A stretch of DNA of 64,000 nucleotides from an uncultured Fibrobacteraceae bacterium (lineage in GTDB: Bacteria; Krumholzibacteriota; Krumholzibacteriia; LZORAL124-64-63). Made by a program: the position numbers and the translations under genes. The notes under the pieces are model-generated. The model saw only the letters and a list, made by a program, of their open reading frames with translations. It was not told where the DNA came from and searched no databases. Below are positions 26,630 through 63,950 of the stretch, in pieces (within the stretch, counting starts at the first letter, position 1; each line of letters starts with the position of its first letter). Location of the stretch: NCBI GenBank assembly GCA_964607825.1, contig CAZSNA010000001.1, positions 23,697 to 87,696 on the forward strand, written 5' to 3'.

Positions 26630-27574
26630 CTAGGTTCTCAGCGGGACATCCAACTCCATCAGGGCCGACGCCAACTTGATCAGCGGCGGCATCGCGAGAC
26701 CGGCCATGATGTTGATCTTCTCCACCAGCTCGCGCTTCAGATCCGACTCCTCGCCGTCGCTGCGCTGTTCGCGGATCTCGCGGGTCAGGCGGCTGAGGGA
26801 CTTGCGACCGTCGCTGCGCTGGATCTTGCCGCGCAGCCGCAGGATCGCCTTGGTGTGGATCTGGCACACGCGCGATTCGGTCACGTCGAGGATCTCGCCG
26901 ATCTCCTTGAGGGTGAGCTCCTCGTAGTAGTAGAGCACCAGCACGAGCTGCTCCTTGTCGGAGAGCTCGCCCAGGCTGCCCGCGACCAGGGCGCGCATCT
27001 CGTCCTCGGAGACGCTGGTCTCGGCGTCGGGCGTGCGGGTGTCGGGCAGGTAGTCGCCCAGACTGGAGCTGTTGGAATCGTCGTCCGAGTTGTCGGCGTC
27101 CAGGGAGACGATGGTGGCCACGGCCACCTCGTCCATCATCTGCGACAGCTCGCCGCGACTGACGCCCAGGTCCTTGGCGATCTCCTCGTCCGTGGGCGTG
27201 CGCCCGAAGCGCGCCTCCAGTCTGACGAAGGCGTCCTCGAGCTGGCGCGCCTTGCGGCGCAGCGAGCGCGGGAACCAGTCCTGCGAGCGCAGCTCGTCGA
27301 GGATCGCGCCGCGGATGCGCGGGATCGCGTAGGTCTCGAACTTGTTCCCGCGCCGGTAGTCGTAGTTGTCGATGGCCTGGATCAGGCCCAGCAACCCGGC
27401 GGAGATCAGATCCTTGTGGTCCACGTAATGGGGCAGTCCGATGGACATGCGCCCCGCCACGAACTTGACCACCCGCGCGTAGAGCTCGACCAGGTCCCGG
27501 CGGGCCTCCTGGTCCTCGCCCGCCTGCAGGCGCTCCCAGAGTTCGAAATGGGCGATGGTTTCTGTCTTCAGCAT
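26630..27574 (-). CDS. fliA: Flagellar sigma factor sigma28 (FliA/SigD), with a ~60-aa C-terminal extension
   Basis: Region 2 (HKDLISAGLLGLIQAIDNYDYRRGNKFETYAIPRIRGAILDELR), region 3 and region 4 HTH (LTLKEIGEILDVTESRVCQIHTKAILRL). 314 aa, against ~240 typical. Confidence 0.9.
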   Translation of the reverse strand: MLKTETIAHFELWERLQAGEDQEARRDLVELYARVVKFVAGRMSIGLPHYVDHKDLISAGLLGLIQAIDNYDYRRGNKFETYAIPRIRGAILDELRSQDWFPRSLRRKARQLEDAFVRLEARFGRTPTDEEIAKDLGVSRGELSQMMDEVAVATIVSLDADNSDDDSNSSSLGDYLPDTRTPDAETSVSEDEMRALVAGSLGELSDKEQLVLVLYYYEELTLKEIGEILDVTESRVCQIHTKAILRLRGKIQRSDGRKSLSRLTREIREQRSDGEESDLKRELVEKINIMAGLAMPPLIKLASALMELDVPLRT

Positions 27575-27632: not shown

Positions 27633-27983
27633 TCATGGGGTCGCAGCCTCTTCGGCCGCCTTCTCCTCCGCCTCGCCGATGAGCTGCTTCTTGCGCTCTT
27701 CCTTGCGCCGGTCGCGCTCGGCCTGACGTTCGGCTTCCGCCTTCAGGCGCGTCTCTTCCTGCTCCTGCTGCTTGCGAAGTATCCGCTCGTGGTCCTCGCG
27801 CACCCACTCGTCGTGGATGCCGGCCCTGAAGACCAGGCTCAGGAGCGATCCCACCAGGTAGAAGGCGAAGTAGGCGATGGCCGCCCGCTTGAGCGTGGGC
27901 AGCGCGCCGAAGTCGCGCAGCAGCGCGTGGAGGATCGTGATGAGGGCCGCCCCCATGGCGGCGCTGTTGACGAACATCCGCAA
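27633..27983 (-). CDS. Hypothetical 116-aa protein: two predicted TM helices plus a K/E/R/Q-rich charged C-terminal tail. Occupies the slot where flhG/fleN normally lies
   Basis: MRMFVNSAAMGAALITILHALL…AYFAFYLVGSLLSLVF then …RKQQEQEETRLKAEAERQAERDRRKEERKKQ…. Fits exactly between flhF and fliA. Confidence 0.45.
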   Translation of the reverse strand: MRMFVNSAAMGAALITILHALLRDFGALPTLKRAAIAYFAFYLVGSLLSLVFRAGIHDEWVREDHERILRKQQEQEETRLKAEAERQAERDRRKEERKKQLIGEAEEKAAEEAATP

Positions 27984-28001: not shown

Positions 28002-29123
28002 TCAGCGGCTCTCCGCGGCCCGGACCGCGTCGACGCCGAGGATGCGCTCCACGAGGTCCGCGGCGTCGGGAATGACGGGGTGCGACCCCGGCCACTCGCC
28101 GCCGGCGACCAGCGACACGGCCATGGGAGCCGAGAGCAGCACGTCGACCAGCTTGCCCGGACCCGCCGTACGGTCCAGCCGCGTCAGGGACAGCCAGTCG
28201 CAGTTCCAGCCCCGCGCCTCGCTCCAGGCGCGCTCGCGGGCGGGGGTGTCGATATCCAGGGGCAGGACCAGGTGGCGGTGCACGTTCTCCAGGCCCGCCA
28301 GCATGTCCCGGAGGTCGGGATCGGACATGACGTCGCCGGTATGGGCCGGCGTGTCGATCAGCACGACGTCGTAGGCGGCGAAGATCTCGAGCCCGGCGGC
28401 GAGATGGGCCGCGTCCTTGAGGATGGCGGCGTCGTAGCCGTGGGCGGTGGCCTCCTCCCGGAAGCGCTCGATCTCGCCGGCGTGGCGCGGCGCGTAGGTC
28501 AGCACCAGGGCGCGATGACCCAGATCCTTCAGGCGCGCGGCCGTGGCGAGCACCAGGTCGGTCTTGCCCGCGCCCGGCCCCCCCAGGAAGAGATGGCATC
28601 CGGCCAGCGAGGCCCAGTCCCCGCCGCTGGTGCGGAGCTGGTCGCGCAGATGCCGCTCGGCCGTATGGGGCCGCCGGCCGCCGGTCTCGGCCAGGTAGAG
28701 GCGGCGCAGGAGGCGGACCGCGGGCAACGAGGCGCCGGTGGCCAGGAGCCGCTTGGCCAGGGGGTAGTCGTCGAAGCCGGTCTCGCGTTCCGCGCGTTCG
28801 GCGGCCTCGCGCTTCACGAGCGTCTCCACCATGGTCTCGATCCGCTCGACCTCGGCGCGGATGGCCTCGGCGGTGCGGGCGGGATCGGGACGCGGCTGCG
28901 GCGGCGTCGATGCGATCGGCGTCTCCCCCGGCGCCGGGCAGACGCTCACCTCGATGAACCGCTCGTCGCCGCGGGTCACGCTGCGCGTCTCGATGATGCA
29001 GGCGTCTTCACCGAACTCCCTGCGAGCCCCGGCGAGGGCGGCGCGGAGGGTCCGGCCGCGGATCTTGTGGACCACGGGGTCCAGGATCGCGGCGCCGGTC
29101 TCAGGCGTTGGCTTGCTGCTCAT
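28002..29123 (-). CDS. flhF: Flagellar biosynthesis SRP-type GTPase FlhF
   Basis: G1 LFLGGPGAGKTDLVLATAARL, G3 DTPAH, N-terminal B-domain-like region. Immediately after flhA. Confidence 0.85.
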   Translation of the reverse strand: MSSKPTPETGAAILDPVVHKIRGRTLRAALAGARREFGEDACIIETRSVTRGDERFIEVSVCPAPGETPIASTPPQPRPDPARTAEAIRAEVERIETMVETLVKREAAERAERETGFDDYPLAKRLLATGASLPAVRLLRRLYLAETGGRRPHTAERHLRDQLRTSGGDWASLAGCHLFLGGPGAGKTDLVLATAARLKDLGHRALVLTYAPRHAGEIERFREEATAHGYDAAILKDAAHLAAGLEIFAAYDVVLIDTPAHTGDVMSDPDLRDMLAGLENVHRHLVLPLDIDTPARERAWSEARGWNCDWLSLTRLDRTAGPGKLVDVLLSAPMAVSLVAGGEWPGSHPVIPDAADLVERILGVDAVRAAESR

Positions 29124-34249: not shown

Positions 34250-34267
34250 CCGCAAGGCGCGTGCCAG
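34250..34267 (-). promoter_or_regulatory. Sigma54 promoter (cTGGCACG-cgcc-TTGCG on the minus strand) in the 175-nt fliO-fliP gap
   Basis: Direct reading of the reverse complement of ccgcaaggcgcgtgccagg. Near-perfect match to TGGCACG-N4-TTGCA. About 55 nt upstream of the fliP ATG. Confidence 0.6.
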
Positions 34268-36246: not shown

Positions 36247-36771
36247 CTACTGGACCACCATGTCGGAGAAGTAGATGTTCATCAGGCTGTCCTCGGGCAG
36301 CGTGTCGCCCAGCTTGCGGAAGAGCTCCGCCTTCAGCGCCGACTTGCCGTCCATGGACTTCAGGTCGGTCGCGAACTTGTTGGACAGGGACAGGATCACG
36401 ATGTCGCGCAGGTGCGGCAGCCGCTGCTCGACCATGCTCGCCACCTTCCCGTCCACGACCTCCAGGTCGATGTTGATGCGCAGGTAGCTCGTGGTGGGGC
36501 CGCCGTCCCTGAGCGTGACGACCACCTCGTTCAGGCCCACCAGCACGCCCTGCTCGGGCTGCTCCTTGTCCTGCTCGGCCTCGGCGACCTCCTCGGTCTC
36601 CGGCGCCGCCAGGGCCTGCAGCTTGGGCGCGATCACGAACTGGGTCACGCCGAAGGCCACCAGGGCCTGGGCCACGATGATGGCCGCCAGCAGGATGAGC
36701 TTGTTGTCGAGAAAACCGCCGCCGGCCTTCTTCTCCTTGGACTCGTCCTTCTTCTTGTCGTCATCAGCCAT
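36247..36771 (-). CDS. fliL: Flagellar basal body-associated protein FliL
   Basis: 174 aa; N-terminal TM LILLAAIIVAQALVAFGV and C-terminal FliL domain (…LRINIDLEV…ELFRKLGDTLPE…IYFSDMVVQ). Overlaps motB by 8 nt. Confidence 0.8.
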   Translation of the reverse strand: MADDDKKKDESKEKKAGGGFLDNKLILLAAIIVAQALVAFGVTQFVIAPKLQALAAPETEEVAEAEQDKEQPEQGVLVGLNEVVVTLRDGGPTTSYLRINIDLEVVDGKVASMVEQRLPHLRDIVILSLSNKFATDLKSMDGKSALKAELFRKLGDTLPEDSLMNIYFSDMVVQ

Positions 36772-37516
36772 CGGTCTCTCCCGGTGTTTCGAGGGGCAGC
36801 CCCTCGTGTCGCGTGGTCTGGGTCTTGGCGGTCTTCAGGAAGATCTCCACGCGACGGTTGGCCGCGCGTCCCTGACTCGTGTCGTTGTCGTCGATCGGCC
36901 GCCACTCGCCGAAGCCCGTGGCGCTGATCCGCTCGGGCGCGATGCCCAGGTCCTGGAAGCGCCGGGCCACCGAGATGGCCCTCGCCGCCGACAGTTCCCA
37001 GTTCGAGGGGAATCGCGGCGTGTTGATGGGCACCGAATCCGTGTGGCCGGAAACGGTCACTTCCTGGCCGACGCCGTCCACCATGACGGCGATCCTGTCC
37101 AGCAGGTCCAGGGCCGTGGCCTGCAGATCGGCCTTCGCCGAGGCGAACAGCACCGAATCCACGATGCTCAGCTTGATGCCGTCGTCCGTCACCTCGACGC
37201 GGACGGCCTGGTCGAGATTCTCCTTAAGCAGGAACTGTTCCAGTTGCCGGACCTGGTAGTAGATCTCCGAGTTGTCCGTCTGGCGCGGCTGCGGGATGAG
37301 CACGTTGGGCTGCTCGATCATGGTGGGGTACTCCTCGAGCACGCCCAGCGCCCCCTGCAGGGACTCCATGGCCTCCTTGAACTTCGTCTCCTGGATCGTC
37401 GAGAAACTGATCAGCAGGATGAAGAAGGTCAGCAGCAGGGACATCATGTCGCCGTAGGTGACCACCCATCCGGGGATCCCCAGCTCTTCCGGCGGACATT
37501 TGCACTTCTTGGGCAT
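36764..37516 (-). CDS. motB: Flagellar motor stator protein MotB (OmpA-like peptidoglycan-binding C-domain)
   Basis: 250 aa; WVVTYGDMMSLLLTFFILLISF plug/TM region and OmpA-like …TVSGHTDSVPINTPRFPSNWELSAARAISVARRF…NRRVEIFL. Confidence 0.85.
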   Translation of the reverse strand: MPKKCKCPPEELGIPGWVVTYGDMMSLLLTFFILLISFSTIQETKFKEAMESLQGALGVLEEYPTMIEQPNVLIPQPRQTDNSEIYYQVRQLEQFLLKENLDQAVRVEVTDDGIKLSIVDSVLFASAKADLQATALDLLDRIAVMVDGVGQEVTVSGHTDSVPINTPRFPSNWELSAARAISVARRFQDLGIAPERISATGFGEWRPIDDNDTSQGRAANRRVEIFLKTAKTQTTRHEGLPLETPGETDG

Positions 37517-37532
37517 GACGCTCCCGTGTCTC

Positions 37533-38321
37533 CTAGGCCGCCGCGCCGGCGTCCTTTTCCTCGTCCATCGCGTTCTGGACCGTGGGCATCAGGAAGGACT
37601 TGAGCTTCTCCTCCACGATGCGGGGCGAGTCGCCGCTCTGGATGGCCAGCACGCCCTCGATGATCATCTCCCGGATCAGGTTCTCCTCCCGGGACCGCGC
37701 CTCCAGCTTGCCCGCCAGGGGCAGGAAGAAGGCGTTGGCCATGACGGCGCCGTAGAGGGTGGTCAGCAGGGCCACGGCCATGCCGGCGCCGATGGTGCTC
37801 GGGTCGTCGAGGGTGGCCAGCATGTTCACCAGGCCCACCAGCGTGCCGATCATGCCGAAGGCCGGCGCGAAGGTGCCGCCGCTCTCGAGGATCTTCTTGC
37901 CCTCGGTGTGGCGGTTGCGCTGCTGGTCGATGTCGGTCTCCATGATCTGCTGCAGCACGGCGGGGTCGTTGCCGTCCACGGCCAGTCGCAGCCCCTTGCG
38001 CAGGAAGTGGTTCTCCTCGGTCTCGGCGTACTCCTCCAGGGCCAGCATGCCTTCCTTGCGGGCCTTCTCGGCGTACTTGACGATCTTCTCGATGTACTCG
38101 CGCGGATCGCTGGCGGCGGCGAAGAGGGTCTTCTTCATGATGGCGATCATGCCCAGCACCTTGGGCAGGGGATAGTTGGCCAGCAGGGCCATCACCGTGC
38201 CGCCCACCACCATCACCAGCGAGGGGATGTTGACGAAGCCCATGATGTCTCCGCCCATCATGATGGCGGATACGATCAGCGCTCCGGCTCCGATCACCCC
38301 GATCAAAGTTGCGATATCCAC
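37533..38321 (-). CDS. motA: Flagellar motor stator protein MotA
   Basis: 262 aa; 4 TM, MotA/TolQ/ExbB channel motifs (…GGTFAPAFGMIGTLVGLVNML…ALLTTLYGAVMANAFFLPLAGKL). Confidence 0.85.
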   Translation of the reverse strand: MDIATLIGVIGAGALIVSAIMMGGDIMGFVNIPSLVMVVGGTVMALLANYPLPKVLGMIAIMKKTLFAAASDPREYIEKIVKYAEKARKEGMLALEEYAETEENHFLRKGLRLAVDGNDPAVLQQIMETDIDQQRNRHTEGKKILESGGTFAPAFGMIGTLVGLVNMLATLDDPSTIGAGMAVALLTTLYGAVMANAFFLPLAGKLEARSREENLIREMIIEGVLAIQSGDSPRIVEEKLKSFLMPTVQNAMDEEKDAGAAA

Positions 38322-40759: not shown

Positions 40760-41404
40760 TCAGATGCCCACCCTGGCGATTTCCGAGGCGTAGTAGTCGC
40801 GCCCGTTGATGCTCATGAGCGCGAGGTTGTTCTCGAATCGGATGCTCTCCACGACACCCTCCATGTAGGTGATCGCGGAGACGTCGTTGCCGGCGCGGTC
40901 GGTCACGCCGACCGTCACCGAGTAGGTGCCGTCCCCGGCGGCGTCGCCGCCCGAGAGGACGCCGTCCCAGGACACGTCGTTCCAGCCGGCCTGGACCTCG
41001 GTCGTGTAGCTGGCGACCAGAGCGCCGCTCTCGTCGCGGACCTCGACGGAGGCCGTGCCGGCGGCCGAGGCCTGGATCCGGCTCGCGCCGGTCGCGCCGT
41101 CCTCGACGCGCACCTCGTTCCCCTCCACCACGGCGCTGCGGCCCACCAGACCCAGCAGCATGGTGTTGTTCAGGGACTGGCTGTAGACCATGTTCTGCTC
41201 GAGGCTCGCGTTCATCTGCTCCAGCTCCTCCAGCATGGCGAACTGGGAGAGCTGCGAGGTGAACTGCGCGTTGTCCAGGGGGTCGAGCGGGTTCTGGTTC
41301 TGGATCTGGGTGACCAGCAGCTGCAGGAACTGGTCCTGCTCGCTGGCGGCGCCCTGGCTCACGGACGTCGTGGACGTGCCGCTGCCGACCGGATTCACGT
41401 TCAT
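40760..41404 (-). CDS. flgD: Flagellar hook capping/assembly protein FlgD
   Basis: 214 aa; FlgD N-domain (DQFLQLLVTQIQNQNPLDPLDNAQFTSQLSQFAMLEELEQ) and Ig-like C-domain. Confidence 0.85.
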   Translation of the reverse strand: MNVNPVGSGTSTTSVSQGAASEQDQFLQLLVTQIQNQNPLDPLDNAQFTSQLSQFAMLEELEQMNASLEQNMVYSQSLNNTMLLGLVGRSAVVEGNEVRVEDGATGASRIQASAAGTASVEVRDESGALVASYTTEVQAGWNDVSWDGVLSGGDAAGDGTYSVTVGVTDRAGNDVSAITYMEGVVESIRFENNLALMSINGRDYYASEIARVGI

Positions 41405-42447
41405 GTCGTCTCCCCCTCCTCTGGCCGGTGATCGGACTCGACGTCGCCGCGGCCGGCGAGGTCGCGGTCATCCGAAGCGTCCGGATCGTCCTGGCGCCGC
41501 TCGCGCCGCGCCTCCGCCTCTTCGTCCTGCTCGACGTCGATGTCGATCCGCGTCCAGTGGTCGTTGCGGCCGAGCAGCAGCTCCTGGAGCGGGCCGGCCC
41601 CGTCCATCAGGGCGCGGGCGGCCGCGGCCGACTCCACGCGGAACTGCAGGTGCAGATGGTCGCCCTCGCGGGTGAACCGGATCTCGACGCGGCCCAGCTC
41701 GGGCGGCGTGAGCTCGAACTTGAGCTGGCCCTTGCCGCCCAGACCACCCAGCTTGCCGGCCAACTGGGCGGCGACCTGGGCGCGGATCTCCTCGGCGGGG
41801 ACCTGGGCCGGTGCGGGAGCCGGCGCCGGTGCGGGGTCGGCGGGCATGGGCTCGCCGAGCGGTTTCAGTCCCTTGATCACGGCCGCCGCCGGGTCGAAGG
41901 CGTCGAGGACGGCGGCCTGCTGGCCGGCCGTCGGGTCGGGGACGGCCCCGCCGGTCTTCGCCTGCGGCGTCTCCCCGGGCGCGGGCTCGGTCGCTTCCTG
42001 GCCCGTGACCGTCTTCAGGGTGTTGCGGACGTGTTCGAGCAGGCGGGCGTAGTCCGCGGCGTCGCGGTCCTGGAGCGCGGCCGCGGCGGCCTCGCGGGAC
42101 GACGCCGGCAGCTCCAGTCCGGGCTGGGCGCCGACGCCCGGCCGCAGGCAGGCCCCCATGATCGGGATCCCCCGCAGGTTCGTCCGGCCCTGCGGTCCGT
42201 TGCGTGCGTCGCCTTCGCGCACCGGCGCCTCCTCGGCGCGTGCGTTGCCGGACGTCGCCCCGGCGTCCGCTCGGGAAGCGGGGGCGTCCGCAGCGGCGCG
42301 ACGGCCGGCCGCTGTGCGCGGCTGGCCGAGCAGGCGTTCGAAGGTGTGGCCGTCCGGAGTGGCCATGGACACGGCCGCCGTGACGTCCGAACGGTAGCGG
42401 TCGGTGTCGCGGCGGGGCGCGTGGCTCGTCTGACCGAGTTCGTGCAT
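41401..42447 (-). CDS. fliK: Flagellar hook-length control protein FliK (start at MHELGQTS; the track ORF is over-extended by ~196 junk codons)
   Basis: C-terminal Flg_hook domain (KGQLKFELTPPELGRVEIRFTREGDHLHLQFRVESAAAARAL) and Pro/Ala-rich central region. ATG overlaps the stop of the upstream gene. Confidence 0.7.
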   Translation of the reverse strand: MHELGQTSHAPRRDTDRYRSDVTAAVSMATPDGHTFERLLGQPRTAAGRRAAADAPASRADAGATSGNARAEEAPVREGDARNGPQGRTNLRGIPIMGACLRPGVGAQPGLELPASSREAAAAALQDRDAADYARLLEHVRNTLKTVTGQEATEPAPGETPQAKTGGAVPDPTAGQQAAVLDAFDPAAAVIKGLKPLGEPMPADPAPAPAPAPAQVPAEEIRAQVAAQLAGKLGGLGGKGQLKFELTPPELGRVEIRFTREGDHLHLQFRVESAAAARALMDGAGPLQELLLGRNDHWTRIDIDVEQDEEAEARRERRQDDPDASDDRDLAGRGDVESDHRPEEGETT

Positions 42448-43001
42448 CAACCCGCTCCCTTCATCTCGTCGGCCTTGCGGGCGCTCATGCGCGAGCTGAT
42501 CTCCGCGGCGAGCCCGGGATTCATGGCGGCCAGGATCTTGGCGGCCTGACGGTCCTTCATGTTGCGCAGGATAGGCAGCACGATGTCGAGGTCCAGGCTC
42601 GACAGGATCGGCGCCGCCTGCGCGGGCTTCATGGCCTCGTAGACCTTGGACAGCTTGCTCGCCTGGGCGTCGCTCCCCGAGGCGAACTGCTTCTGGGCCT
42701 CCTGCAGGTCGGCGATCAGTTCGGATAGCTTGTCGTCGCGTTCGGAAAGCAGCTTGTCCTCCACCTCGTAGAGCGACTGGCGCATCAGGTCGTGCTCGCG
42801 CTCGCGCTGGATGTCGTCGCGGGCCCGGGCCAGGTTCATGTAGAGCGTCTGCTCGGCGTCGCCGTCCCGTTCGACGGAGGCGGCCTCCTTGAGCGTCCGC
42901 TTCAGATCGCGCACGGCGTCCTGGTAGAGGCCGCCGCTGATCATGACGACGGCCAGGATCACCGTGAAGGTCAGGGAGGAGATGATGATGATCGACTTCA
43001 T
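42447..43001 (-). CDS. MotE/FlbB/YlxF-like flagellar protein (N-terminal TM, coiled coil, MgtE-N-like C-terminal motif)
   Basis: MKSIIIISSLTFTVILAVVMISGGL, then coiled coil, then …AAPILSSLDLDIVLPILRNMKDRQAAKILAAMNPGLAAEI… Positioned between fliJ and fliK as in the B. subtilis and spirochaete fla operons. Confidence 0.5.
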   Translation of the reverse strand: MKSIIIISSLTFTVILAVVMISGGLYQDAVRDLKRTLKEAASVERDGDAEQTLYMNLARARDDIQREREHDLMRQSLYEVEDKLLSERDDKLSELIADLQEAQKQFASGSDAQASKLSKVYEAMKPAQAAPILSSLDLDIVLPILRNMKDRQAAKILAAMNPGLAAEISSRMSARKADEMKGAG

Positions 43002-43435
43002 GCTCTGCGTCCGCTCCCCCTGGAGGCGATCTCATCGGTGCGTTTCTGGTCCAGACGGCGTTGCCGCTGCGACCATTCGTCGTGACGGCGGTCCTTCAGC
43101 ATCTCCAGGGCGCGCACCTCTCGTTGAGCGGCCAGCAGGTGCCGGCGCTGCGCGTCGGCCCGCTGCCGGATGGCCCGGATCTCGTCCTCGTTGTGCCGGA
43201 TCAGCCGCTGCTGCCCCTGTACGAATTCCGTGAGACGCCGTCGCTCGTTCAGGTCGTCGCTCGTGACGCCGGGCGCCGCGGCCGCCGCCAGCTCCCTGCA
43301 GCGCGCCGCCATGCGGGCGTTCTCACGCTCCAGGACCAGCGCCGCGGACTCGATCGCATGCAGTTTTCGTGCCTCGGCCTCCATGCGTCGGACACGATGG
43401 CGCAGCACGGCCTCGAGCTTGAAGCGGAATGGCAT
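42998..43435 (-). CDS. fliJ: Flagellar export chaperone FliJ
   Basis: 145-aa coiled-coil protein (MPFRFKLEAVLRHRVRRMEAEARKL…) immediately after fliI. Confidence 0.65.
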   Translation of the reverse strand: MPFRFKLEAVLRHRVRRMEAEARKLHAIESAALVLERENARMAARCRELAAAAAPGVTSDDLNERRRLTEFVQGQQRLIRHNEDEIRAIRQRADAQRRHLLAAQREVRALEMLKDRRHDEWSQRQRRLDQKRTDEIASRGSGRRA

Positions 43436-48292: not shown

Positions 48293-48799
48293 CTAGATGT
48301 CCAGGGCCTTGGCGAACATCTGCTTGGCCGCCTGGACGGCCGAGATGTTGGCCTCGTAGGCCCGGCTGGCTGTGATCATGTCCACCATCTCGGTGATGAC
48401 GTTCACGTTGGGCATAAGTACGTAGCCCTCGGCGTCCGCGTCCGGATGGCCGGGATCGTAGACGACCTTGAATTCGGAGGCGTCGGGGGCCGTCTCGACC
48501 TGCATCTCGACGCCCCGGCTCACCCGGGTTGCGCCGCCGGCCCCGCCGGTGATGTGGCGCGGATCCGTGGCGGACAGGCCGCCCGATGCGCGTGACTCGG
48601 GACCGGGCAGGGCGCGACCGTCGAGCTTCTGCGCCAGGGTCTGCTCGAAGACGACCCGCTCGCGGCGATAGGGGGTGCCGTCCTCGGTGCGCGTGGTCTC
48701 GGCGTTGGCCAGATTCTTGGCGACCGTGTCCATTTTCGTCCGCATGCCCGACAGGCCGGACGAGCTGATCTTGATGGAGCCGAACAGTCCGTCACTCAT
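48293..48799 (-). CDS. flgC: Flagellar basal-body rod protein FlgC
   Basis: 168 aa; SSSGLSGMRTKMDTVAKNLANAETTRT… and C-terminal …ITEMVDMITASRAYEANISAVQAAKQMFAKALDI. Confidence 0.92.
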   Translation of the reverse strand: MSDGLFGSIKISSSGLSGMRTKMDTVAKNLANAETTRTEDGTPYRRERVVFEQTLAQKLDGRALPGPESRASGGLSATDPRHITGGAGGATRVSRGVEMQVETAPDASEFKVVYDPGHPDADAEGYVLMPNVNVITEMVDMITASRAYEANISAVQAAKQMFAKALDI

Positions 48800-48815
48800 G
48801 TCGTCGCCTCCTTCC

Positions 48816-49229
48816 CTACTTCACACGGCCCGAGACCGCTTCGCTCAGCTGCGTGTATTTCATGCTCAGCAGACGGGTGGCCAGGCGGTACGACAGCTCC
48901 GTCGTCGCCAGGGTCGCCATCTCCGTGTCCACGTTCACGTCGTTGATGCCGTTGTCGTGGCCGCTGTCCTGGGCCACGACCTCGCCGCGGGCGTCCTCGA
49001 GGGAGCGCACGCCGACAGGCAGATGCGCCGCATGGGTTTGCGCGCCCTGCAGCCGGCGTCCGGCCTCCTGGCGCAGCAGGCTCTCGAAGCGGTACTCCTG
49101 GGCCTTGTACCCGGACGTCTCCACGTTGGCGATGTTCTCGGCGGTCACGCGGTGGCGTCCCGAGTAGACCGTCAGCGCCTGTTTGAGATGACCGAGGTGG
49201 GCCTGTCCGAAGATGGTGGTGTCGAACAT
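48816..49229 (-). CDS. flgB: Flagellar basal-body rod protein FlgB
   Basis: 137 aa; …RHRVTAENIANVETSGYKAQ… and C-terminal …MATLATTELSYRLATRLLSMKYTQLSEA. Confidence 0.9.
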   Translation of the reverse strand: MFDTTIFGQAHLGHLKQALTVYSGRHRVTAENIANVETSGYKAQEYRFESLLRQEAGRRLQGAQTHAAHLPVGVRSLEDARGEVVAQDSGHDNGINDVNVDTEMATLATTELSYRLATRLLSMKYTQLSEAVSGRVK

Positions 49230-49343
49230 GGGACCGCCTAGCCTCCTTGCCGGGGACAGGTGGGGGCCGCCGTCGGCGACGCCGTCCGGGATCCGTCCCG
49301 GACATCCGGCCGCTTCAGCCCATCAAGAACCGTTCCGGGCCGA

Positions 49344-49697
49344 TCAGGCGCCATGTCCCGCCAGCTCCAGGAACAGCTTGTCGTTCTCCGCCTCCACCTG
49401 GAGGATCTGCTCGATGAGCTCCCCCATCGACACCAGGGACTGCTGCAGCCGCACCGGCAACGAGCCGCGCAGGTCGCCGCGGTGCCGTTCCCAGCAGGCG
49501 CGGGCCTCGGCGCCGCGCCGCTCCAGACGGGCGATCTCGTCCAGCCGCTCGCGCTTGGCTTCCAGCACGCGCCGGATGCCGCGCAGGCTCTCCCCGTCGC
49601 GGATCAGGTCGGCCTGGTCACGGGAGAGCTGCAGGACCTCCTCGTAGAGGACCCGCTCGCGGGCGAAGAGATCGATCAGGCCCTCCAGCAGCATCTG
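49344..49697 (-). CDS. FlgN-family-like helical protein (possible flagellar export chaperone). Start may be the M at 49697 or further up at 49742
   Basis: Heptad pattern MLLEGLIDLFARERVLYEEVLQLSRDQADLIRDGESLRGIRRVLEAKRERLDEIARLERR resembles the FlgN family (L..LL..E..LY..LL.L...Q). Directly upstream of flgB. Confidence 0.4.
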   Translation of the reverse strand, partial: QMLLEGLIDLFARERVLYEEVLQLSRDQADLIRDGESLRGIRRVLEAKRERLDEIARLERRGAEARACWERHRGDLRGSLPVRLQQSLVSMGELIEQILQVEAENDKLFLELAGHGA

Positions 49698-49713
49698 GGG
49701 AGCGGTGGACGTC

Positions 49714-50781
49714 TCAGCGGGCGTGCAGGCTGTCGATGCCATAGGGCGCGCCCTCCTTCCGGATGTCGGCCAGGGTGACGGCCGCCTCGGCCAGGGCGCA
49801 GGCGCGCAACTGCCAGGAGGCGGGGTCGGTTGCGTTGCAGGATTCCTCGAGCAGCGGCGCGGCCTCTTCGTAGCGGCCGGCCAGCATCAGATCGTAGGCG
49901 ATCACGTAGCGGGCCCAGCGGCCGGCCTCGACATCGTCGCGCGCCGCCAGCAGGGTATAGAGCCGATAGGCGTCGCGGCGGCGATCCGTCACCAGCAGCA
50001 GGTCCGGCAGGGTGCGGACGAACCAGGCCACGTGGGCCGGTTCGAGTCGCTCGCTGAGACGTGCGTCGCTCGCCAGGGACAGCAGCAGGGGCGCGGCCTC
50101 GGACGGCCGGTCGCGTCGGACAAGCGCGAAGGCGTGCCAGAAGCGGACTTCCGCCGGCAGCCTGTCGATCTGGGCGCCCACCTTCTCGATCAGCAGGTTC
50201 AGGTTGTTCCGGTCGTGCCGGCCGAGGTAGTGGCGATAGGCCAGGACGACCGCGCCGGCGCGCCGCTCGAGCCGGGGGGCCCCCACGGTGTTCAGGAGCT
50301 GTTCGATGATCAGCAGCGAATCGCCCGACTGGATCGCCGTGGCGAAGATCTCGCGGGACAGGTCGTCGTCCACGGCGGTGGCGCCGCCCATGTCCGACAC
50401 GGCCATGCCGTACCAGTCCAGGGCGCTCTGGTAGTCCAGGATCTCGGCGCTGGAGCGCGCGTGGTTGATTCCCCGGACCGCGTCGCCGAATTCACGATCA
50501 TCCCAGGCGCGGCCGACGGACTCGTCGTAGTCCAGCAGGGCGCGGGCGGCGGTCAGCCGTCGCTCGGGACCGCCGGCGCCGATCTCGGCCTCGGTGCGGC
50601 CGGTCGGGTAGAGACGCGCCTTGGGCTCCGCGTCCAGGGCCTGCAGCCACTGGGCGTAGCCGAGCAGGGTGGCGCGGGAGAGCCCCTTGGCCGCACGGGC
50701 CTCGCCGTCGATCAGGACCGCGAAGAACGCGATCCAGACCCACAGGACGACCACCGGGCCATTTTCTTGACGAAGGCGCAT
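49714..50781 (-). CDS. Hypothetical 355-aa protein with an N-terminal signal/anchor and an Ala/Leu/Arg-rich helical-repeat body, preceded by a sigma54 promoter
   Basis: N-terminal hydrophobic segment VVVLWVWIAFFAVLIDGEARA, high GC3 coding. First gene after the fleR terminator, upstream of flgN-like and flgB. No family recognised. Confidence 0.4.
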   Translation of the reverse strand: MRLRQENGPVVVLWVWIAFFAVLIDGEARAAKGLSRATLLGYAQWLQALDAEPKARLYPTGRTEAEIGAGGPERRLTAARALLDYDESVGRAWDDREFGDAVRGINHARSSAEILDYQSALDWYGMAVSDMGGATAVDDDLSREIFATAIQSGDSLLIIEQLLNTVGAPRLERRAGAVVLAYRHYLGRHDRNNLNLLIEKVGAQIDRLPAEVRFWHAFALVRRDRPSEAAPLLLSLASDARLSERLEPAHVAWFVRTLPDLLLVTDRRRDAYRLYTLLAARDDVEAGRWARYVIAYDLMLAGRYEEAAPLLEESCNATDPASWQLRACALAEAAVTLADIRKEGAPYGIDSLHAR

Positions 50782-50825
50782 GATTTCCTTGCTTCAAAAG
50801 CCGTAAACGACGGTTTCAGTGAGGA

Positions 50826-50842
50826 TTCGCAATCGACATGCC
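50826..50842 (-). promoter_or_regulatory. Sigma54 promoter (aGGCATG-tcga-TTGCGa on the minus strand) upstream of the 355-aa gene
   Basis: Reverse complement of tcgcaatcgacatgcct. GG-N10-GC spacing is exact, with a good match to TGGCACG-N4-TTGCA. Confidence 0.5.
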
Positions 50843-50859
50843 TGCCGGGCGGCGGGCAC

Positions 50860-50887
50860 GAAAAACCGGGAGGCCAAGGGCCTCCCG
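50860..50887 (-). terminator. Rho-independent terminator after fleR (10-bp GC stem CCGGGAGGCC/GGCCTCCCGG, 3-nt loop, U5 tract on the minus strand)
   Basis: Plus strand reads aaaaaCCGGGAGGCCaagGGCCTCCCGG. 27-54 nt past the fleR stop. Confidence 0.75.
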
Positions 50888-50913
50888 GCTCGGTCGGGGC
50901 GTCGTCGGGCGGG

Positions 50914-52340
<1,427 letters not shown>

Positions 52341-52344
<4 letters not shown>

Positions 52345-54674
52345 GACATCTCCTGTTCCTGGGCGGCCGGTGCGGTCTCCTCGGAGTCCCGCAAGTCGGG
52401 CAACAAGATGGCGAAAATGGTGCCGTTCCCGTCGCAGTCGACGGAAATGCGGCCGGCGTGGGCCTTGACGATCTTGCGGCAGATGGACAAGCCCAGGCCC
52501 GTGCCTGAGTTCTTGGTCGTGTAGAAGGGACGGAAGATGCGGTCGCGGTCCGCGGGCGCCACGCCGGGCCCCTCGTCCGTGACCGCGAGACGGAAACCGG
52601 GGCGCACGCGGGACTCCCCGCTCACGGGGTCGTCCACCAGCAGGTCGTCCACGCGGGTCAGGGTGGCCGAGACGGTGCCGCCGGCGGGCGAGGCGTCCAC
52701 GGCGTTGAACAGCAGGTTCAGCACCACCTGCTTGAGCTGGGTGCCGTCGGCCGCGAGGGTCGCGCTCTCGCCGCGGGGCAGGTCGCGCCCCAGGCCCAGC
52801 CGCACGTCCTTGTCGTCGGCGCGGGGGCGCGCCAGCACCAGGCTGTCGCGCAGCAGGCGGTCGAGGTCCACGTGGCCGAGTTCGGGTTCGTAGGGGCGCA
52901 CGAACTGGAGCATGCGGGTGATGGTGTCGTTGATCCGGCCCACCTCGCCGGTGATCACGTCGATGTAGCGGCGGCGCGGGTCGTCGTCCTCCAGGTTGTC
53001 GCCGAGCAGTTCGGCCTGGGCGCTCAGGCCCATCAGCGGATTGCGGATCTCGTGGGCCAGGGCCGCCGACATCTCCACCAGGCTCTCCAGGGCGTCGGCG
53101 CGGCGGGTCTCCTGGGCCAGCCGCTTGACCGGGCGGAGGTCCTCCAGCACGACCACGCGCCAGAGCTCGTCGCGGGCGCGGCCCGGCATCAGGTGGGCCT
53201 GGACCATCACCGGGACCGCGGTGCCGTCCGCGCGCACGACCCGCCCCTCCCCGTAGAAGGGCTCGGGATCCTCGTGCTTGAAGGCGGCCAGGGCCGGCCC
53301 CTCCTGGTCCTCCAGGCGCAGCATGGCGTCCAGGAGCAGTTCCGGCAGACCCTCCAGGTGGAAGGTGTCGCGGCGGAAGAAGGCCGAGGTGGACCCGGTG
53401 TCGTCGGGGTGGCGACCGCGTCCGAGGGCCGTGTCGGGCTCCGTGATGATGCGCGGCGCTTGGGCGCGGCCGGTGACCAGTTCGCGGCCGCCCCGGTTGC
53501 AGAAGATGGTGCGGCCCAGGTCGTCCAGAACCCAGATGCCGCTGTCCACCGCCTCGAGCACCCGCGAATTGAAGGTGCCGAGCTCGCGCATGCGGTCGAG
53601 CATCTGGGCCGCCGCCACCTCCTCGGCCAGGATGATCTGGGCGGTGCGCAGGAAGGCGAGCTGGCCGCTGGTGGCCGTGCGCGGCTGGAAGTCCAGCAGC
53701 AGCAGGTAGCCGAGGCAGGCGTGCATGTGGTCCAGGGACAGGGCCGCCACCACGGGCAGCGTGTCGTCGCGCTCCGCTTCGGGTTCCAGGGTGATCACGA
53801 CGGGCTCGCCGGGATCCCCGTCCTCGCGCCGGCGTTCGGCCTCGAGACGGGTCAGCACCCGGTCCCAGCCCTCCTCGTTCCAGTGGAAGGTCTGGCGGGG
53901 CGCGAAGGGGGCGTCGGGCGCGGGACGCAGCACCAGGGCGGCGCCCTGGGCGCCCACGAAGTCGGCCATGGTGCCCAGGAGCGACTCGAGGGTGCTGTCC
54001 CAGTTGGGCGTGGTGCTCAGCTCGCGCACGATGGTGTAGAGCAGCGAGAGCTGGTCCATGTGCTCGGTCAGGGCCTGGTTGGCCTCTTCCAGGCGCAGGT
54101 GCGAACGGGCCAGATCGTCACCGGCGCGCACGAGTTCCACCTGCAGGCGTTGACGGTGCTCGAGCAGCCGCTCGGTGGTCTCCTGCTGGGCGGCCTCGAG
54201 ACGATCCGCCTCGTCGAAGACGGCCAGACGCGCGCCAACCCGCTGGAGCAGGTCTTCCCACGCCGCGTCGTCGCCCAGGGGGATCGCGTCGAAGAGGCCG
54301 GCGCGGAAGCAGGCCGGCAAGAGCAGGTCCTCGCTGCCGTCATGGAGCAGGACCGGCAAGGCGGCGGGGTTGATCACGCGCAGGGCCCGCACGAGTTCGG
54401 GCAGATCCGCGGCGGCGCGTCGTTCGCGCGTCAGGGGCAGGATCACGAGCATGGGCCGGGGCCCGTCGGACGCTCTCGCGCGCAAGTCCACGAGCAGATC
54501 GCTCGCCGCGGCGTGGAAGATCAACTCGTCGGTCGTGGCCGGAACCAGGTCGGTCCAGGCGGAATCCGCGACCACGAGAATGGGAAATCGATCCGGATCT
54601 CGATCTGAAAAACGAAGTGGCACGCCGCCCCCCGAGCGCTCGAGTCGTCGATCACTGGAACCGCTGTCGGACAA
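52341..54674 (-). CDS. fleS: Cytoplasmic sensor histidine kinase (FleS/FlrB-like) with a long N-terminal region (pseudo-receiver-like plus PAS/GAF-like). Apparently a TTG start
   Basis: HisKA H-box LAHEIRNPLMGLSAQAELL, HATPase_c N/G boxes (NLLFNAVDASPAGG…DEGPGV…GTGLGLSICRKIV). No TM helices seen. An in-frame TAA lies 9 codons upstream of the TTG. Confidence 0.8.
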
Positions 54675-55153: not shown

Positions 55154-55254
55154 CTGGGCTTCGCTCCTGGGTCTCGTGGGTTCGGACTCGGAATCAGGGC
55201 CATGCTAGCAAGGCCGGGACCAGGCGACAAGGTCGGCGACGCTGCGTGTAGTGG

Positions 55255-55282
55255 TTATCGGACGAGAGGGCATTATCTTTAG
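55255..55282 (-). promoter_or_regulatory. Sigma28 (FliA) promoter for flgM: TAAAGATA-N11-tCCGATAA on the minus strand
   Basis: Reverse complement of ttatcggacgagagggcattatcttta. Spacer is exactly 11 nt. About 95-nt leader to the flgM ATG. Confidence 0.6.
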
Positions 55283-58343: not shown

Positions 58344-58672
58344 TGGATCCCGATCTCAACCGACTGATCGCCCTGACCGAGGAGATGTCCGTCGCCTTCG
58401 CGCGCGACGATCTCGACCGGTGCGCCGAACTGCTCGACGCCCGGGGCGGCCTGCTGCGCGATCTGCATGCGCGCTACGGTCCCGGCGGCCCTCTCCCCGT
58501 CCCCGAGGGCCTGCAGCGGGTGCTGGACGAGGTCAACGCCCAGGACCGGGCCCTCGAGGCGCGCCTGACCGGCGCCCTGGCCGAGACGGGTCGTCGTCTC
58601 GGTGACCTGCAGCAGAAGACCCGCCGCGGCGGCGACGGGTCGAGCGGGATCCACCTGAATCGGCGAGCCTAG
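58344..58672 (+). CDS. Small helical protein downstream of fliS (FliT-like position); GTG start
   Basis: ~109 aa, L/A/R/D/E-rich heptads (…[37 protein letters not shown]…[19 protein letters not shown]…), high GC3. The competing minus-strand ORF is Arg/Gly/Pro junk. Confidence 0.35.
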
Positions 58673-58914
58673 TCGGTCTCTTCCTCTTCCTTCTTGTCCT
58701 TGTCCAGGAACTTCTTGGGATCGGGCTGATCCGAATCGGCGGCCTTCATGGTGATGTTCTTGATCTCTTCGTAGATCTCGTGACGGTGGACCGGAATCGA
58801 GCGCGGCGCGTCGATGCCGATCTGGACCTGGTCGCCACGTATATCGACGATCATGATCGAGATGTCGTCCCCGATCATGATCTTCTCGTTGCGCTTGCGG
58901 CTCAGGATTAACAC
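58669..58914 (-). CDS. csrA: Carbon storage regulator CsrA (81 aa, acidic C-terminal tail)
   Basis: [51 protein letters not shown]… is near-invariant CsrA. Tail is …[11 protein letters not shown]. Confidence 0.93.
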
Positions 58915-58963
58915 GGGACCTCCATGTCTCCGCGGTACTCCAATGGGACCGAACGTCGTGCGG

Positions 58964-59536
58964 TCAGCGCACGTCTACGAGCTCGGCCTCCGGGTCGCGC
59001 ACCGTCGGTTCCGCCGACCCATCCTCATCATATCCACCCGTCATGGCCTTGTCCACCGCTGTTCCGACCACCGTCTCGGGGTGTCCGGCGGCGTAGGCCT
59101 GGCAGGCCTCGCCGAACCTGAGCTGGTTGATCTCGTGTCGCATCCCGTAATGACCGCTCTCGAGGATGCACTGTATCCCCTTGCGGTTCTTCACGTTGAC
59201 GACCAGGGGCGCCGACAGGTTGCCCGTGATCCGCTGTCCGCCGGGGTGGACCGTGGAGATGATCATCACCACGATGTCTTCCACGTCCTCGGCGTTGATG
59301 ACCGCCTGCGAGGCGTCGTCGATCTCGAAACTGTAGGCCTCGGTGTAGAAGCCGGGGTCCGTGATCGGCAGTCGGAAGCCCTCGCGATCCAGGCTCTGGA
59401 GCCATTTCATGGGCAATACGGGCTCCATGTCAACCAGAATCCAGCGCTTAAGCTCCGGCAGGCCGACCAGACCGTTCCGGAACGTCAGCACGTCCTCGGG
59501 CCTGTGGGTGCGGGTCTCTTCGTTCGCCTGGCTCAT
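58964..59536 (-). CDS. fliW: Flagellar assembly factor FliW (CsrA antagonist), with a C-terminal extension
   Basis: …[20 protein letters not shown]…[23 protein letters not shown]…[20 protein letters not shown]… matches the FliW family. fliW-csrA adjacency. Confidence 0.85.
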
Positions 59537-62517: not shown

Positions 62518-63054
62518 TCAGGCCTGCTTGACGATGACGCCGGCGCAGGCGCCGCTCGCCTCGCCGCCGCGGGCGTCGTAACAGCCGTCCTTGCCGCTCA
62601 CGCCGCGACGGAGGATGTCGGCCTCGGCGCCCACCATGTCCAGACAGAAATCGGCCAGCAGCCCGTTCAGGGCGTTCTGGCGCATGAGTTCACCGGTCGT
62701 CTTCTCCCACGCGCGCAGGTCGGCGCGCAGGGCGCGTCCGGTCTCGCCCGTGGTGCTCCGCGCCAGACGGCTCATGCGGAGCTCGTCCGTCCCGATGCCG
62801 TGGCGGCGGCCCAGCTCCAGCAGATAGGTCTCGCGGGCGCGGCGCGCGTCCTCGGCCACGGGCAGCCGGTCGGTCCAGGTGGCGACGACCTCGGCCAGGT
62901 GCACCACGTCCTGGCTGCGCAGCCACTCGTTCTGATGCTGCGCCAGCTCCAGCAGCTCGCCGTAGGCCCGCGCTTCGGCCCTCAGCAGGGCCCGCAGGTT
63001 GTCGGCCTCGGCTCTCGAGAGAGGAGCTGTGGTGCGCTGGGTCGGGGTCGTCAT
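62518..63054 (-). CDS. FlgN-family-like protein (putative FlgK/FlgL chaperone), 178 aa
   Basis: …ADNLRALLRAEARAYGELLELAQHQNEWLRSQDVVHLAEVVATW…LLELGRR… has the FlgN-like heptad pattern. Located immediately upstream of flgK as in flgN-flgK-flgL operons. Confidence 0.45.
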   Translation of the reverse strand: MTTPTQRTTAPLSRAEADNLRALLRAEARAYGELLELAQHQNEWLRSQDVVHLAEVVATWTDRLPVAEDARRARETYLLELGRRHGIGTDELRMSRLARSTTGETGRALRADLRAWEKTTGELMRQNALNGLLADFCLDMVGAEADILRRGVSGKDGCYDARGGEASGACAGVIVKQA

Positions 63055-63071: not shown

Positions 63072-63950
63072 TCAGGGCGCGAAGCCCAGGCTCGGGTTTC
63101 CGTCCAGGTCGCCGTACATGGCGCCCACCTTCTGCACGTAGGTGCGGGTCTCGGCGAAGTCCGGCACCACGTCGCCCGCACGTCGCACGTTGCCGGGGCC
63201 GGCGTTGTACGCGGCCAGCACCAGATCCAGGTCGCCGCCGAACTGCTCGCGCATGCGGGCCAGGTAGCGGACGCCGCCGCGGATGTTCTGGACGGGGTCG
63301 AAGGGATCGTCCACGCCCATCTCGGCGGCCGTGCCCGGCATGAGCTGCATCAGGCCCTGGGCGCCGGCCCGGGAGACGGCGTCCGGCCGTCCGCCCGATT
63401 CCTGGACCATGACCGCCAGCACCAGCTCCGGCGCCAGGTCGTGGTCGCGGGCCGCGGCCTCGATCTCGGGTCCCCAGCGACGCAGGGTGTCGGCCGCGGC
63501 GCCGCCCAGGGCATGGGCCCGCTCCGTCAGGCCGCTGGTGTCCCGCCGAGGCGCGCGTCGATCGGCGTCCGCATAGGCCGCCAGGGCGCGGTCGATCTCG
63601 GGCCCCAGCCGGCTCGTCGCGGGCAGCGGCGCGAAGGTGTCGACCGGCAGCGCGCCGCCGGTGCGGTCGTCCGGGATCGGCGCCATGCCCGGCCCGTCCC
63701 GGGTGTCGGGGGCCCCGTCGCCGTTCACGTAGGGCTCGTACTGGCGGGTCACCATCTCGGCGATGCCGAGTCCGCCTGAACCGCCGATGCGGTCGGCCAT
63801 GGCCTCGTCCAGCATCTGCTTGTAGGTGTCCATCTCGCCGCCGCCGGTCAGCTCCGAGGTGGGCACGGTCTGCCGCATGGTCTTCATGAGCGTCTGCACG
63901 AACAGGGACTCGAAGTGCTCGGCGGCCTGGTGGAGCTTCGACAGACGCAC
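63072..63950 (-). CDS. flgJ: FlgJ-like protein: N-terminal rod-binding domain fused to a C-terminal SLT lytic transglycosylase domain (N-terminus may extend beyond the called GTG or past the window end)
   Basis: Rod-binding motif …KLHQAAEHFESLFVQTLMKTMRQ…. SLT core …LVLAVMVQESGGRPDAVSRAGAQGLMQLMPGTAAEMG…LAAYNAGPGNV. The open frame continues upstream (…APPSAPDLPGGPDARE) to the window edge without a canonical start. Confidence 0.7.
   Translation of the reverse strand: MRLSKLHQAAEHFESLFVQTLMKTMRQTVPTSELTGGGEMDTYKQMLDEAMADRIGGSGGLGIAEMVTRQYEPYVNGDGAPDTRDGPGMAPIPDDRTGGALPVDTFAPLPATSRLGPEIDRALAAYADADRRAPRRDTSGLTERAHALGGAAADTLRRWGPEIEAAARDHDLAPELVLAVMVQESGGRPDAVSRAGAQGLMQLMPGTAAEMGVDDPFDPVQNIRGGVRYLARMREQFGGDLDLVLAAYNAGPGNVRRAGDVVPDFAETRTYVQKVGAMYGDLDGNPSLGFAP

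Follow-up and report, generated by a model that had tools for sequence, protein, structure and literature searches.

What does the protein do that is encoded at the head of the long flagellar gene series of an uncultured, Krumholzibacteria-like bacterium? We analysed a stretch of 64,000 nucleotides (nt) from contig CAZSNA010000001.1 (assembly GCA_964607825.1, uncultured Fibrobacteraceae bacterium; hereafter the window), in which the gene for a sigma54 activator is followed by that of a protein of 355 amino acids (aa), here called X, and then by a FlgN-like gene, flgB and further flagellar genes. X is very probably a periplasmic flagellar accessory protein. Our first-ranked reading of its role, which is tentative and argued by analogy, is that of a periplasmic motor scaffold of the PflA/MotC class in Krumholzibacteria-like bacteria of the Fibrobacteres-Chlorobi-Bacteroidetes (FCB) group. 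The coordinates of the main features are given in Table 1.

The X gene, its promoter region and its neighbours

The X open reading frame (ORF) is a real, conserved gene. Its guanine-plus-cytosine (GC) content at the three codon positions is 0.74, 0.49 and 0.90, as in every confirmed gene of the window (overall GC 69.5 %), and its product contains 16.3 % alanine, 13.5 % leucine and 11.0 % arginine; the sequence-only reading of this DNA, which had described a protein of 355 aa with an Ala/Leu/Arg-rich body, is borne out on both counts. An antisense ORF longer than X (49705..51018, + strand) was set aside as a high-GC shadow.

A word-indexed search returned 15 close homologues, and when it was repeated with a diverse alignment (A2), 14 of the 15 hits belonged to the same close set. 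In a full hidden Markov model scan with X, the matches comprised 92 representative clusters (50 % identity), of which 59 lay below 1e-10, and the proteins of nearly all clusters are 330-370 aa long. All of these homologues come from metagenomes or metagenome-assembled genomes of uncultured bacteria, labelled 'bacterium', 'uncultured Fibrobacteraceae bacterium' or, once, Krumholzibacteria. No description of the family was found in a literature search, and X probably represents a new, lineage-restricted family of an already known kind of flagellar accessory protein. It diverges faster than the neighbouring genes (35 % identity between the window and locus L006, where the regulator reaches 74 % and FlgB 63 %), which fits a peripheral component.

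Synteny was compared in 17 independent loci including the window, two of which (L009 and L018) are short contigs that show only part of the order. Every locus extending far enough (the window, L001-L007, L010, L012, L016, L017, L019-L021) has the order flgM, kinase, sigma54 regulator, X, FlgN-like gene and then flgB-flgC-fliE-fliF-fliG, the sole exception to the upstream order being L005, where different DNA lies 5' of X. The arrangement holds for X members at 17-22 % identity and for the contig labelled Krumholzibacteria. The concern that the ORF might lack conservation, or linkage to flgB, is thereby answered, as the ORF is conserved and the order is kept down to 17-20 % identity.

Two locus types can be told apart downstream of X. 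In type A (the window, L001-L006, L017), X and the FlgN-like gene are followed by flgB. In type B, the more divergent loci (L007, L010, L012, L016, L019, L020, L021), two further genes intervene: HK2, a kinase of ~240 aa without a sensor domain, and RR2, a second sigma54 activator with a receiver (REC) domain. The FlgN-like, HK2 and RR2 genes of type B overlap or abut by 1-4 nt, and the gap between RR2 and flgB is 9-70 nt. This second two-component tier, seen for example at L020:9026-11519, is missing from the window's clade. The presence of a second kinase/activator pair before flgB in most other clades ties X to regulators at least as tightly as to rod genes.

The sigma54 activator lies directly 5' of X in all loci reaching that far, save L005, and is presumed to activate the X promoter. 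It is preceded by a FlgM-like gene and by a 777-aa histidine kinase (52341..54674, -) that shows no Pfam sensor or transmembrane domain in its first ~370 residues and only a weak PAS_8 match at residues 371-399. Between the activator gene and X, a terminator-like hairpin with five Ts has a folding energy of -30.3 kcal/mol (z = -2.73; none of 200 shuffles was equally stable), so that the intrinsic terminator proposed at 50860-50887 stands with its coordinates shifted by about one base. A simple terminator scan did not flag this hairpin, likely because a G-U extension of the stem consumes the T-run. Hairpins with a T-run and differing stem sequences also occur in L001-L004 and L018; the hairpin of L007 has a weak T-run and that of L016 has none.

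The sigma54-type element upstream of X, proposed earlier as the gene's own promoter, does have the exact GG-N10-GC spacing, but as a single motif it is not above chance in the window: allowing one mismatch, it has 9 matches versus 10.8 expected, and the textbook consensus with two mismatches has 25 versus 19.8 expected. Its weight comes from its conservation. Of the 17 independent loci, 15 have the pattern GG-N8-TTGC upstream of X, at a distance of 45-82 nt from the start codon; the chance of such a pattern is 0.039 per shuffled 110-nt upstream region. The 15 include L005 and clades whose intergenic DNA is otherwise unalignable. We infer that transcription of X is sigma54-dependent. There are two exact matches to GGCAYG-N4-TTGC in the window, one of them being the X element; the other, GGCACGCGCCTTGC (34252..34265, -), lies just upstream of the fliP start and could be fortuitous or could mark an internal sigma54 promoter. 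Closer to X, the block that contains the Shine-Dalgarno sequence is conserved in the window and in L002-L005, with ATT instead of ATC before the ATG in L004. An Rfam scan of 48500..51500 detected no RNA family.

A FlgN-like gene stands 3' of X in every locus that extends past X, and the overlap of the two genes suggests that they are translationally coupled. The assignment of this gene to the FlgN family holds only in part: the protein matches the Pfam FlgN model PF05130 (E = 1.7e-6) with 29.0 bits, below the cut-off of 30.5, and among its homologues those of L017, L019 and L021 have matches, two of them weak. AlphaFold2 predicts three long helices forming a three-helix bundle (predicted local distance difference test score, pLDDT, 85), and a profile search of the PDB and Foldseek showed nothing beyond such a bundle. 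The genuine FlgN of the window (62518..63054, -; 53 bits) adjoins flgK/flgL, which the FlgN-like gene does not, and hhalign gives a probability of 4 % for the comparison of the two proteins. The FlgN-like protein, whose family is confined to the same lineage as X, is a second, divergent FlgN-family-like protein beside the genuine one.

As had been read from the sequence, flgB comes next, but the accompanying claim that no recognisable promoter separates it from the FlgN-like gene fails. In type A loci, the 114-nt spacer between the two genes contains an invariant sigma54-like block, the only invariant stretch besides the ribosome-binding site, and its pattern has a single match in the window. 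The block has the exact sigma54 spacing and GA instead of GC at -12; from its sequence, it could be a weak internal sigma54 promoter or another regulatory site. With this conserved element in front of it, flgB may have a source of transcription besides the X promoter. The earlier suggestion that X is a sigma54-dependent, co-transcribed flagellar factor is therefore supported by the synteny of 17 loci and the motif of 15, with the reservation that flgB may have an element of its own.

Predicted export and fold of X

X probably carries a cleavable Sec signal peptide, with cleavage predicted after A28-R29-A30 (judged heuristically by the -3/-1 rule, not by a predictor). A small-x-small site occurs at the same position in all full-length close homologues (alignment A1), and in nearly all of the 71 full-length sequences of the family, a basic n-region is followed by a stretch of 14-25 uncharged residues and by an A-x-A-like site. 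These family-wide features point to a protein that is exported and probably cleaved, rather than signal-anchored as first described; under either topology, the body of X would face the periplasm. We rejected X as a lipoprotein, as it has no lipobox, and as a substrate of twin-arginine translocation, as it has no consistent twin-arginine motif. A further candidate identity, a cytoplasmic class-II tetratricopeptide repeat (TPR) chaperone of a type III secretion system, was rejected by the signal peptide and by the cysteine pair described below.

The mature protein (~36 kDa) is predicted to be a soluble, degenerate TPR solenoid. AlphaFold2, run on a 15-sequence alignment, models X as an all-helical solenoid (pLDDT 81.8; predicted template-modelling score 0.76) built of ~6-7 helical hairpins and closed by a long capping helix at the C terminus; the only beta content is two isolated bridge residues, 57 and 62. 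The model shows the pattern by which we recognised a TPR protein, at least three tandem helix-turn-helix repeats of ~34 residues in a right-handed solenoid. The proposed helical repeats are thus found in the model and are of the TPR kind, with no Sel1 match in Pfam. The statement that X lacks recognisable homology applies to the window protein by itself, which has no significant match in Pfam or NCBIfam (sub-threshold TPR_2, E = 0.34; TPR_19, E = 0.49), but not to its family, since 7 of 17 diverse members match Pfam TPR models (TPR_12, TPR_14, TPR_16 and others; best E = 2e-7). A profile search of PDB sequences gave weak, generic TPR matches, such as kinesin light chain TPR (E = 0.0025), and the fold matches are likewise generic, including BamD- and LapB-like TPR proteins.

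X has only two cysteines, Cys315 and Cys328. Among 71 family members, 57 have both, 13 have neither and 1 has one alone (Fisher p = 2e-13, kinship ignored). This co-variation points to a structural disulfide in an oxidising compartment, and a periplasmic Cys315-Cys328 disulfide probably stabilises X. Near-invariant residues are R109, W123, D154-S155, R183, W215, W253, D260, W289, Q293, A307 and W323. The conserved G-D-S-L at 153-156 raised the possibility of a GDSL esterase, which we rejected given its all-alpha context.

Table 1. Features of the window around X, with strand
Feature	Coordinates	Strand	Description
Response regulator / sigma54 activator (FleR/FlrC-type; REC, AAA+, Fis helix-turn-helix)	50914..52344	-	Pfam Response_reg 5e-32, Sigma54_activat 6e-65, HTH_8 4e-15
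Intrinsic-terminator-like hairpin and T5	stem 50866..50888, T5 50861..50865	-	3' of the activator gene
Sigma54-type -24/-12 element aGGCATGtcgaTTGCGa (GGCATG-tcga-TTGC)	50829..50842	-	GG-N10-GC spacing; GG 61 nt upstream of ATG
Shine-Dalgarno sequence AAGGAA	50785..50790	-	Inside conserved block GCAAGGAAATCATG
X coding sequence	49714..50781	-	355 aa including signal peptide; ATG start; predicted periplasmic TPR-like alpha-solenoid
Predicted signal peptide, residues 1-30	50692..50781	-	n-region MRLRQEN, hydrophobic h-region G8-I24 (17 residues), c-region DGEARA
Segment with Cys315 and Cys328	49798..49839	-	Motif C-x(7)-W-x(4)-C
FlgN-like gene, 132 aa	49344..49742	-	First 29 nt shared with the end of X; no signal peptide
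Sigma54-like block TGGAAC-N5-TTGAT (cGGAAC-ggttc-TTGAT in the window)	49322..49337	-	8 nt past the FlgN-like stop, ~95 nt upstream of flgB
flgB	48816..49229	-	Pfam; first downstream basal-body gene
FlgY/YlxF/FlbB-type E-ring protein	42447..43001	-	MgtE_N 31.5 bits versus cut-off 25.9; N-terminal transmembrane helix, coiled coil, MgtE_N/ARM-like domain

Candidate roles of X

According to recent work, the E-ring around the MS-ring of the flagellar motor consists of FlgY/FlbB/MotE/YlxF, an MgtE_N-domain protein usually encoded beside fliJ or fliK; the ring is connected to the stator by its partners, periplasmic TPR proteins (PflA, MotC, MotK, CC_2058, FlcA/B) that are not conserved in sequence, and a TPR gene is found in or near the flagellar clusters of ~52 % of flagellated species (PMC13023049, PMC11870540, PMC7990780). 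As the TPR partners are untraceable by sequence, each lineage needs its own candidate. The window encodes an MgtE_N protein of this type between fliJ and fliK, the place reported for genes of FlgY homologues (PMC13023049); another is present in L017, and in L001 fliJ is followed by a weak MgtE_N gene. No TPR gene besides X was seen in ~45 kb of flagellar genes. The presence of the FlgY homologue, together with X as the sole TPR gene of the cluster, leads us to rank the scaffold reading first. Under this proposal, X would be a scaffold for protein-protein contacts in the periplasm, placed around the MS-ring and the proximal rod. Its functional class would be that of PflA, MotC, MotK and FlcA, the TPR spokes, which attach to the FlgY/MotE/FlbB E-ring and keep the MotB stator in position or stable; the FlgY homologue is the proposed partner of X.

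Among known systems, MotC of Sinorhizobium meliloti and CC_2058 of Caulobacter (E-ring partner CC_2059) resemble X in having a signal peptide, a periplasmic location, a mainly TPR composition and a place in flagellar clusters, and their genomes, like that of X, also encode a FlgY/MotE-type MgtE_N protein (PMC13023049). Pfam and NCBIfam, libraries that were not checked for a MotC model, gave no flagellar family for X at E <= 1. The motC gene lies in the motB operon; X, in contrast, is ~12 kb from motA/motB (37533..36764), between the sigma54 regulator and the FlgN-like gene. CC_2058 adjoins its own E-ring gene (PMC13023049), while X is ~7 kb from flgY. PflA of Campylobacter and Helicobacter shares with X a periplasmic location, a signal peptide and TPR repeats; it is a proposed partner of the FlgY E-ring, and for PflA-like proteins a location in the flagellar cluster serves as an operational criterion (PMC11870540). 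X has the three features used to recognise such proteins, namely at least three TPR repeats, a position in or near a flagellar cluster and a FlgY homologue in the same genome (PMC11870540). Unlike the all-alpha X with its ~6-7 repeats, PflA has an N-terminal beta-sandwich (AMIN-like), a long loop wrapping PflB and ~17 TPRs (PMC11870540); a PflB-like transmembrane TPR protein was not seen in the cluster. FlcA/BB0236 of the Borrelia collar and MotK of Cereibacter are, like X, lineage-specific and TPR-based; they build on a FlbB/MotE base and affect stator recruitment (PMC7990780, PMC13023049). They differ from X in size and in domain content (AMIN in MotK), some collar proteins are membrane-anchored, and there is no detectable homology. 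MotX of the Vibrio T-ring has Sel1-like repeats and an intramolecular disulfide. It thus resembles X as a small, soluble, periplasmic helical-repeat protein with a conserved disulfide in a sigma54-controlled polar-flagellum regulon (both the disulfide and the sigma54 control being predictions in X). X differs from it in having no Sel1 match in Pfam; its stator is MotA/MotB-like, and MotY was not found in the cluster.

Several observations weigh against the scaffold reading. X shows no sequence similarity or specific structural similarity to characterised flagellar TPR proteins, it is without the beta-sandwich/AMIN domain found at the N terminus of PflA and MotK, and its repeats are far fewer than those of PflA. 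It adjoins neither motAB nor flgY, its invariant neighbours being the regulators and the FlgN-like gene, and in most clades HK2 and RR2 follow directly with their short overlaps, which would fit a regulatory or checkpoint role equally well. Lastly, upstream of X in L016 and L020 there is no clear sigma54 motif; these loci represent the most divergent subfamily, which also lacks the cysteine pair. As X departs from the PflA architecture and is not next to motB or flgY, we file it as functionally analogous to these proteins and not as a member of their family.

What, then, are the alternatives to a permanent motor scaffold? The sequence-only reading favoured a role like that of FlgA, FlgJ or FlgT, which we now consider unlikely, since X has none of their domains and FlgA, FlgH, FlgI, FlgJ and a genuine FlgN are all encoded in the genome. 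With the FlgA, FlgJ and FlgN functions already provided, X appears to be an additional component and not a replacement. A transient periplasmic chaperone or escort for a single exported subunit (rod, P-ring or stator-associated) would be a related idea, with precedents in FlgA for FlgI and, as proposed, MotE for MotC. TPR domains are common chaperone and adaptor modules, and X, predicted to be soluble and periplasmic, would be made before or with the rod as the first cistron of the early sigma54 unit; as canonical FlgA is already encoded and no client can be named, we consider such a role unlikely, while noting that sequence alone does not separate it from that of a scaffold. The opposite appeal, to the regulatory neighbours, gives a module of X and the FlgN-like protein that would time later flagellar genes in the sigma54 cascade, X reporting the periplasmic state of assembly and the FlgN-like protein acting on HK2/RR2 or, in the window's clade, on the first kinase. 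Both genes always adjoin two-component sigma54 regulators, the tight type B order includes a kinase without a sensor domain, and the FlgN-like protein is a paralogue-like extra beside the genuine FlgN. Yet X is predicted to be soluble and periplasmic, no transmembrane partner is evident through which a signal might reach kinases in the cytoplasm, the clade of the window retains X and the FlgN-like gene though HK2 and RR2 are absent, and adjacency within one long flagellar operon is weak evidence of a shared regulatory function; we regard this module as rather improbable. A more elaborate form, an undescribed trans-envelope checkpoint of which X would be one half and the FlgN-like protein the other, coupling periplasmic motor assembly to the sigma54 cascade, is a long shot. 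In this form, X would read the state of the MS-ring, E-ring and rod, and the FlgN-like protein would gate HK2 and its activator, or the first kinase where HK2 and RR2 have been lost.

Two further possibilities draw on the envelope and not on the motor. NlpI and LbcA are TPR platforms, and by analogy X might either bring a lytic enzyme to the site at which the rod passes through the cell wall or hold such an enzyme back there. It is a predicted periplasmic TPR protein that would be expressed along with rod genes, and the cluster or its surroundings encode two proteins with SLT domains, FlgJ (63072..63950) and an SLT-LysM protein (21186..22919). Against such peptidoglycan remodelling, FlgJ has a rod-binding domain of its own, and X has neither a lipobox nor a peptidoglycan-binding domain and is unlinked to either SLT gene, making it very unlikely. 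The generic fold matches, which include BamD- and LapB-like proteins, could also describe a general envelope TPR protein that hitch-hikes in the locus without any flagellar function. That X would then hold an invariant position in flagellar loci on 17 independent contigs across very deep divergence, with a conserved sigma54 promoter motif and translational coupling to the FlgN-like gene, makes mere hitch-hiking extremely improbable.

The wider flagellar cluster and its predicted regulation

By Pfam, the genes that follow X and the FlgN-like gene run in the order flgB, flgC, fliE, fliF, fliG, fliH, fliI, fliJ, flgY, fliK, flgD, flgE, motA, motB, fliL, fliM, fliN, fliP, fliR, flhB, flhA, flhF and fliA. 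A second sigma54 activator, FleQ-like and without a receiver-domain hit, comes after fliA (24163..25743); with the activator upstream of X, it makes two in the window. Further genes are found in L015, on the same contig and running past the end of the window: flgF, flgG, flgA (ChapFlgA), flgH, flgI and flgJ (Rod-binding and SLT domains), as well as the genuine flgN, flgK, flgL, fliW, csrA, fliT, fliS, fliD and fliC. A PilZ-domain gene lies just upstream of flgF in L015.

Other observations concern single genes of the cluster. Because the long ORF listed as fliK (41401..43035) shares DNA with the FlgY gene, in a different reading frame, fliK itself probably begins near 42450. Between flhF (28002..29123) and fliA (26630..27574), a 116-aa ORF (27633..27983, -) encodes a hydrophobic N-terminal part and a highly charged, Glu/Lys/Arg-rich tail; no MinD-like flhG was seen between these two genes. 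Conserved blocks that contain GGA, namely GGATGGAGCC and, at the Shine-Dalgarno site, ACGGAGG, are found in the flgB leader (49230..49320, -), which also has a small hairpin. Given these blocks, and with fliW and csrA in the same cluster (58669..59536, -), CsrA might conceivably control the translation of flgB. Just beyond the flagellar cluster there are genes for a GGDEF diguanylate cyclase (19616..21004, -) and the SLT-LysM lytic transglycosylase mentioned above (+ strand).

In nine loci, the flgM-like gene has a sigma54-type sequence, TGGTCCC-N4-TTGCT, 68-76 nt upstream of its ATG (55207..55222, -, in the window), and further upstream there is a sigma28-like TAAAG-N15-CCGATAA (~55240..55270, -). 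These motifs imply that the flgM/kinase/regulator operon may be under dual sigma54/sigma28 control. In the cascade that we envisage, the FleQ-like protein would first activate the sigma54 promoter that drives flgM, the kinase and the response regulator; the phosphorylated response regulator would then fire the sigma54 promoter before X, and the unit from X through fliA would be expressed. X would be made first, coupled to the FlgN-like protein and alongside the proteins of the rod, MS-ring, C-ring and export gate, after which FliA (sigma28) would turn on flagellin. The locus would thus offer a phylogenetically footprinted three-tier sigma54/sigma54/sigma28 flagellar hierarchy outside the Proteobacteria.

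Recent work has proposed that the E-ring (FlgY) with TPR spokes is an ancient, widespread part of the flagellar motor. X is a well-defined candidate spoke for Krumholzibacteria-like bacteria of the FCB group, being compact, TPR-only by prediction and the sole TPR gene in its cluster, and it offers a conserved export signal, a cysteine pair and invariant Trp, Arg and Asp residues that can be mutated. The assignment would be useful to motor specialists and not surprising to them. If true, it would provide a minimal spoke without an AMIN domain and would extend the spoke/E-ring architecture to a phylum without a cultured motile representative.

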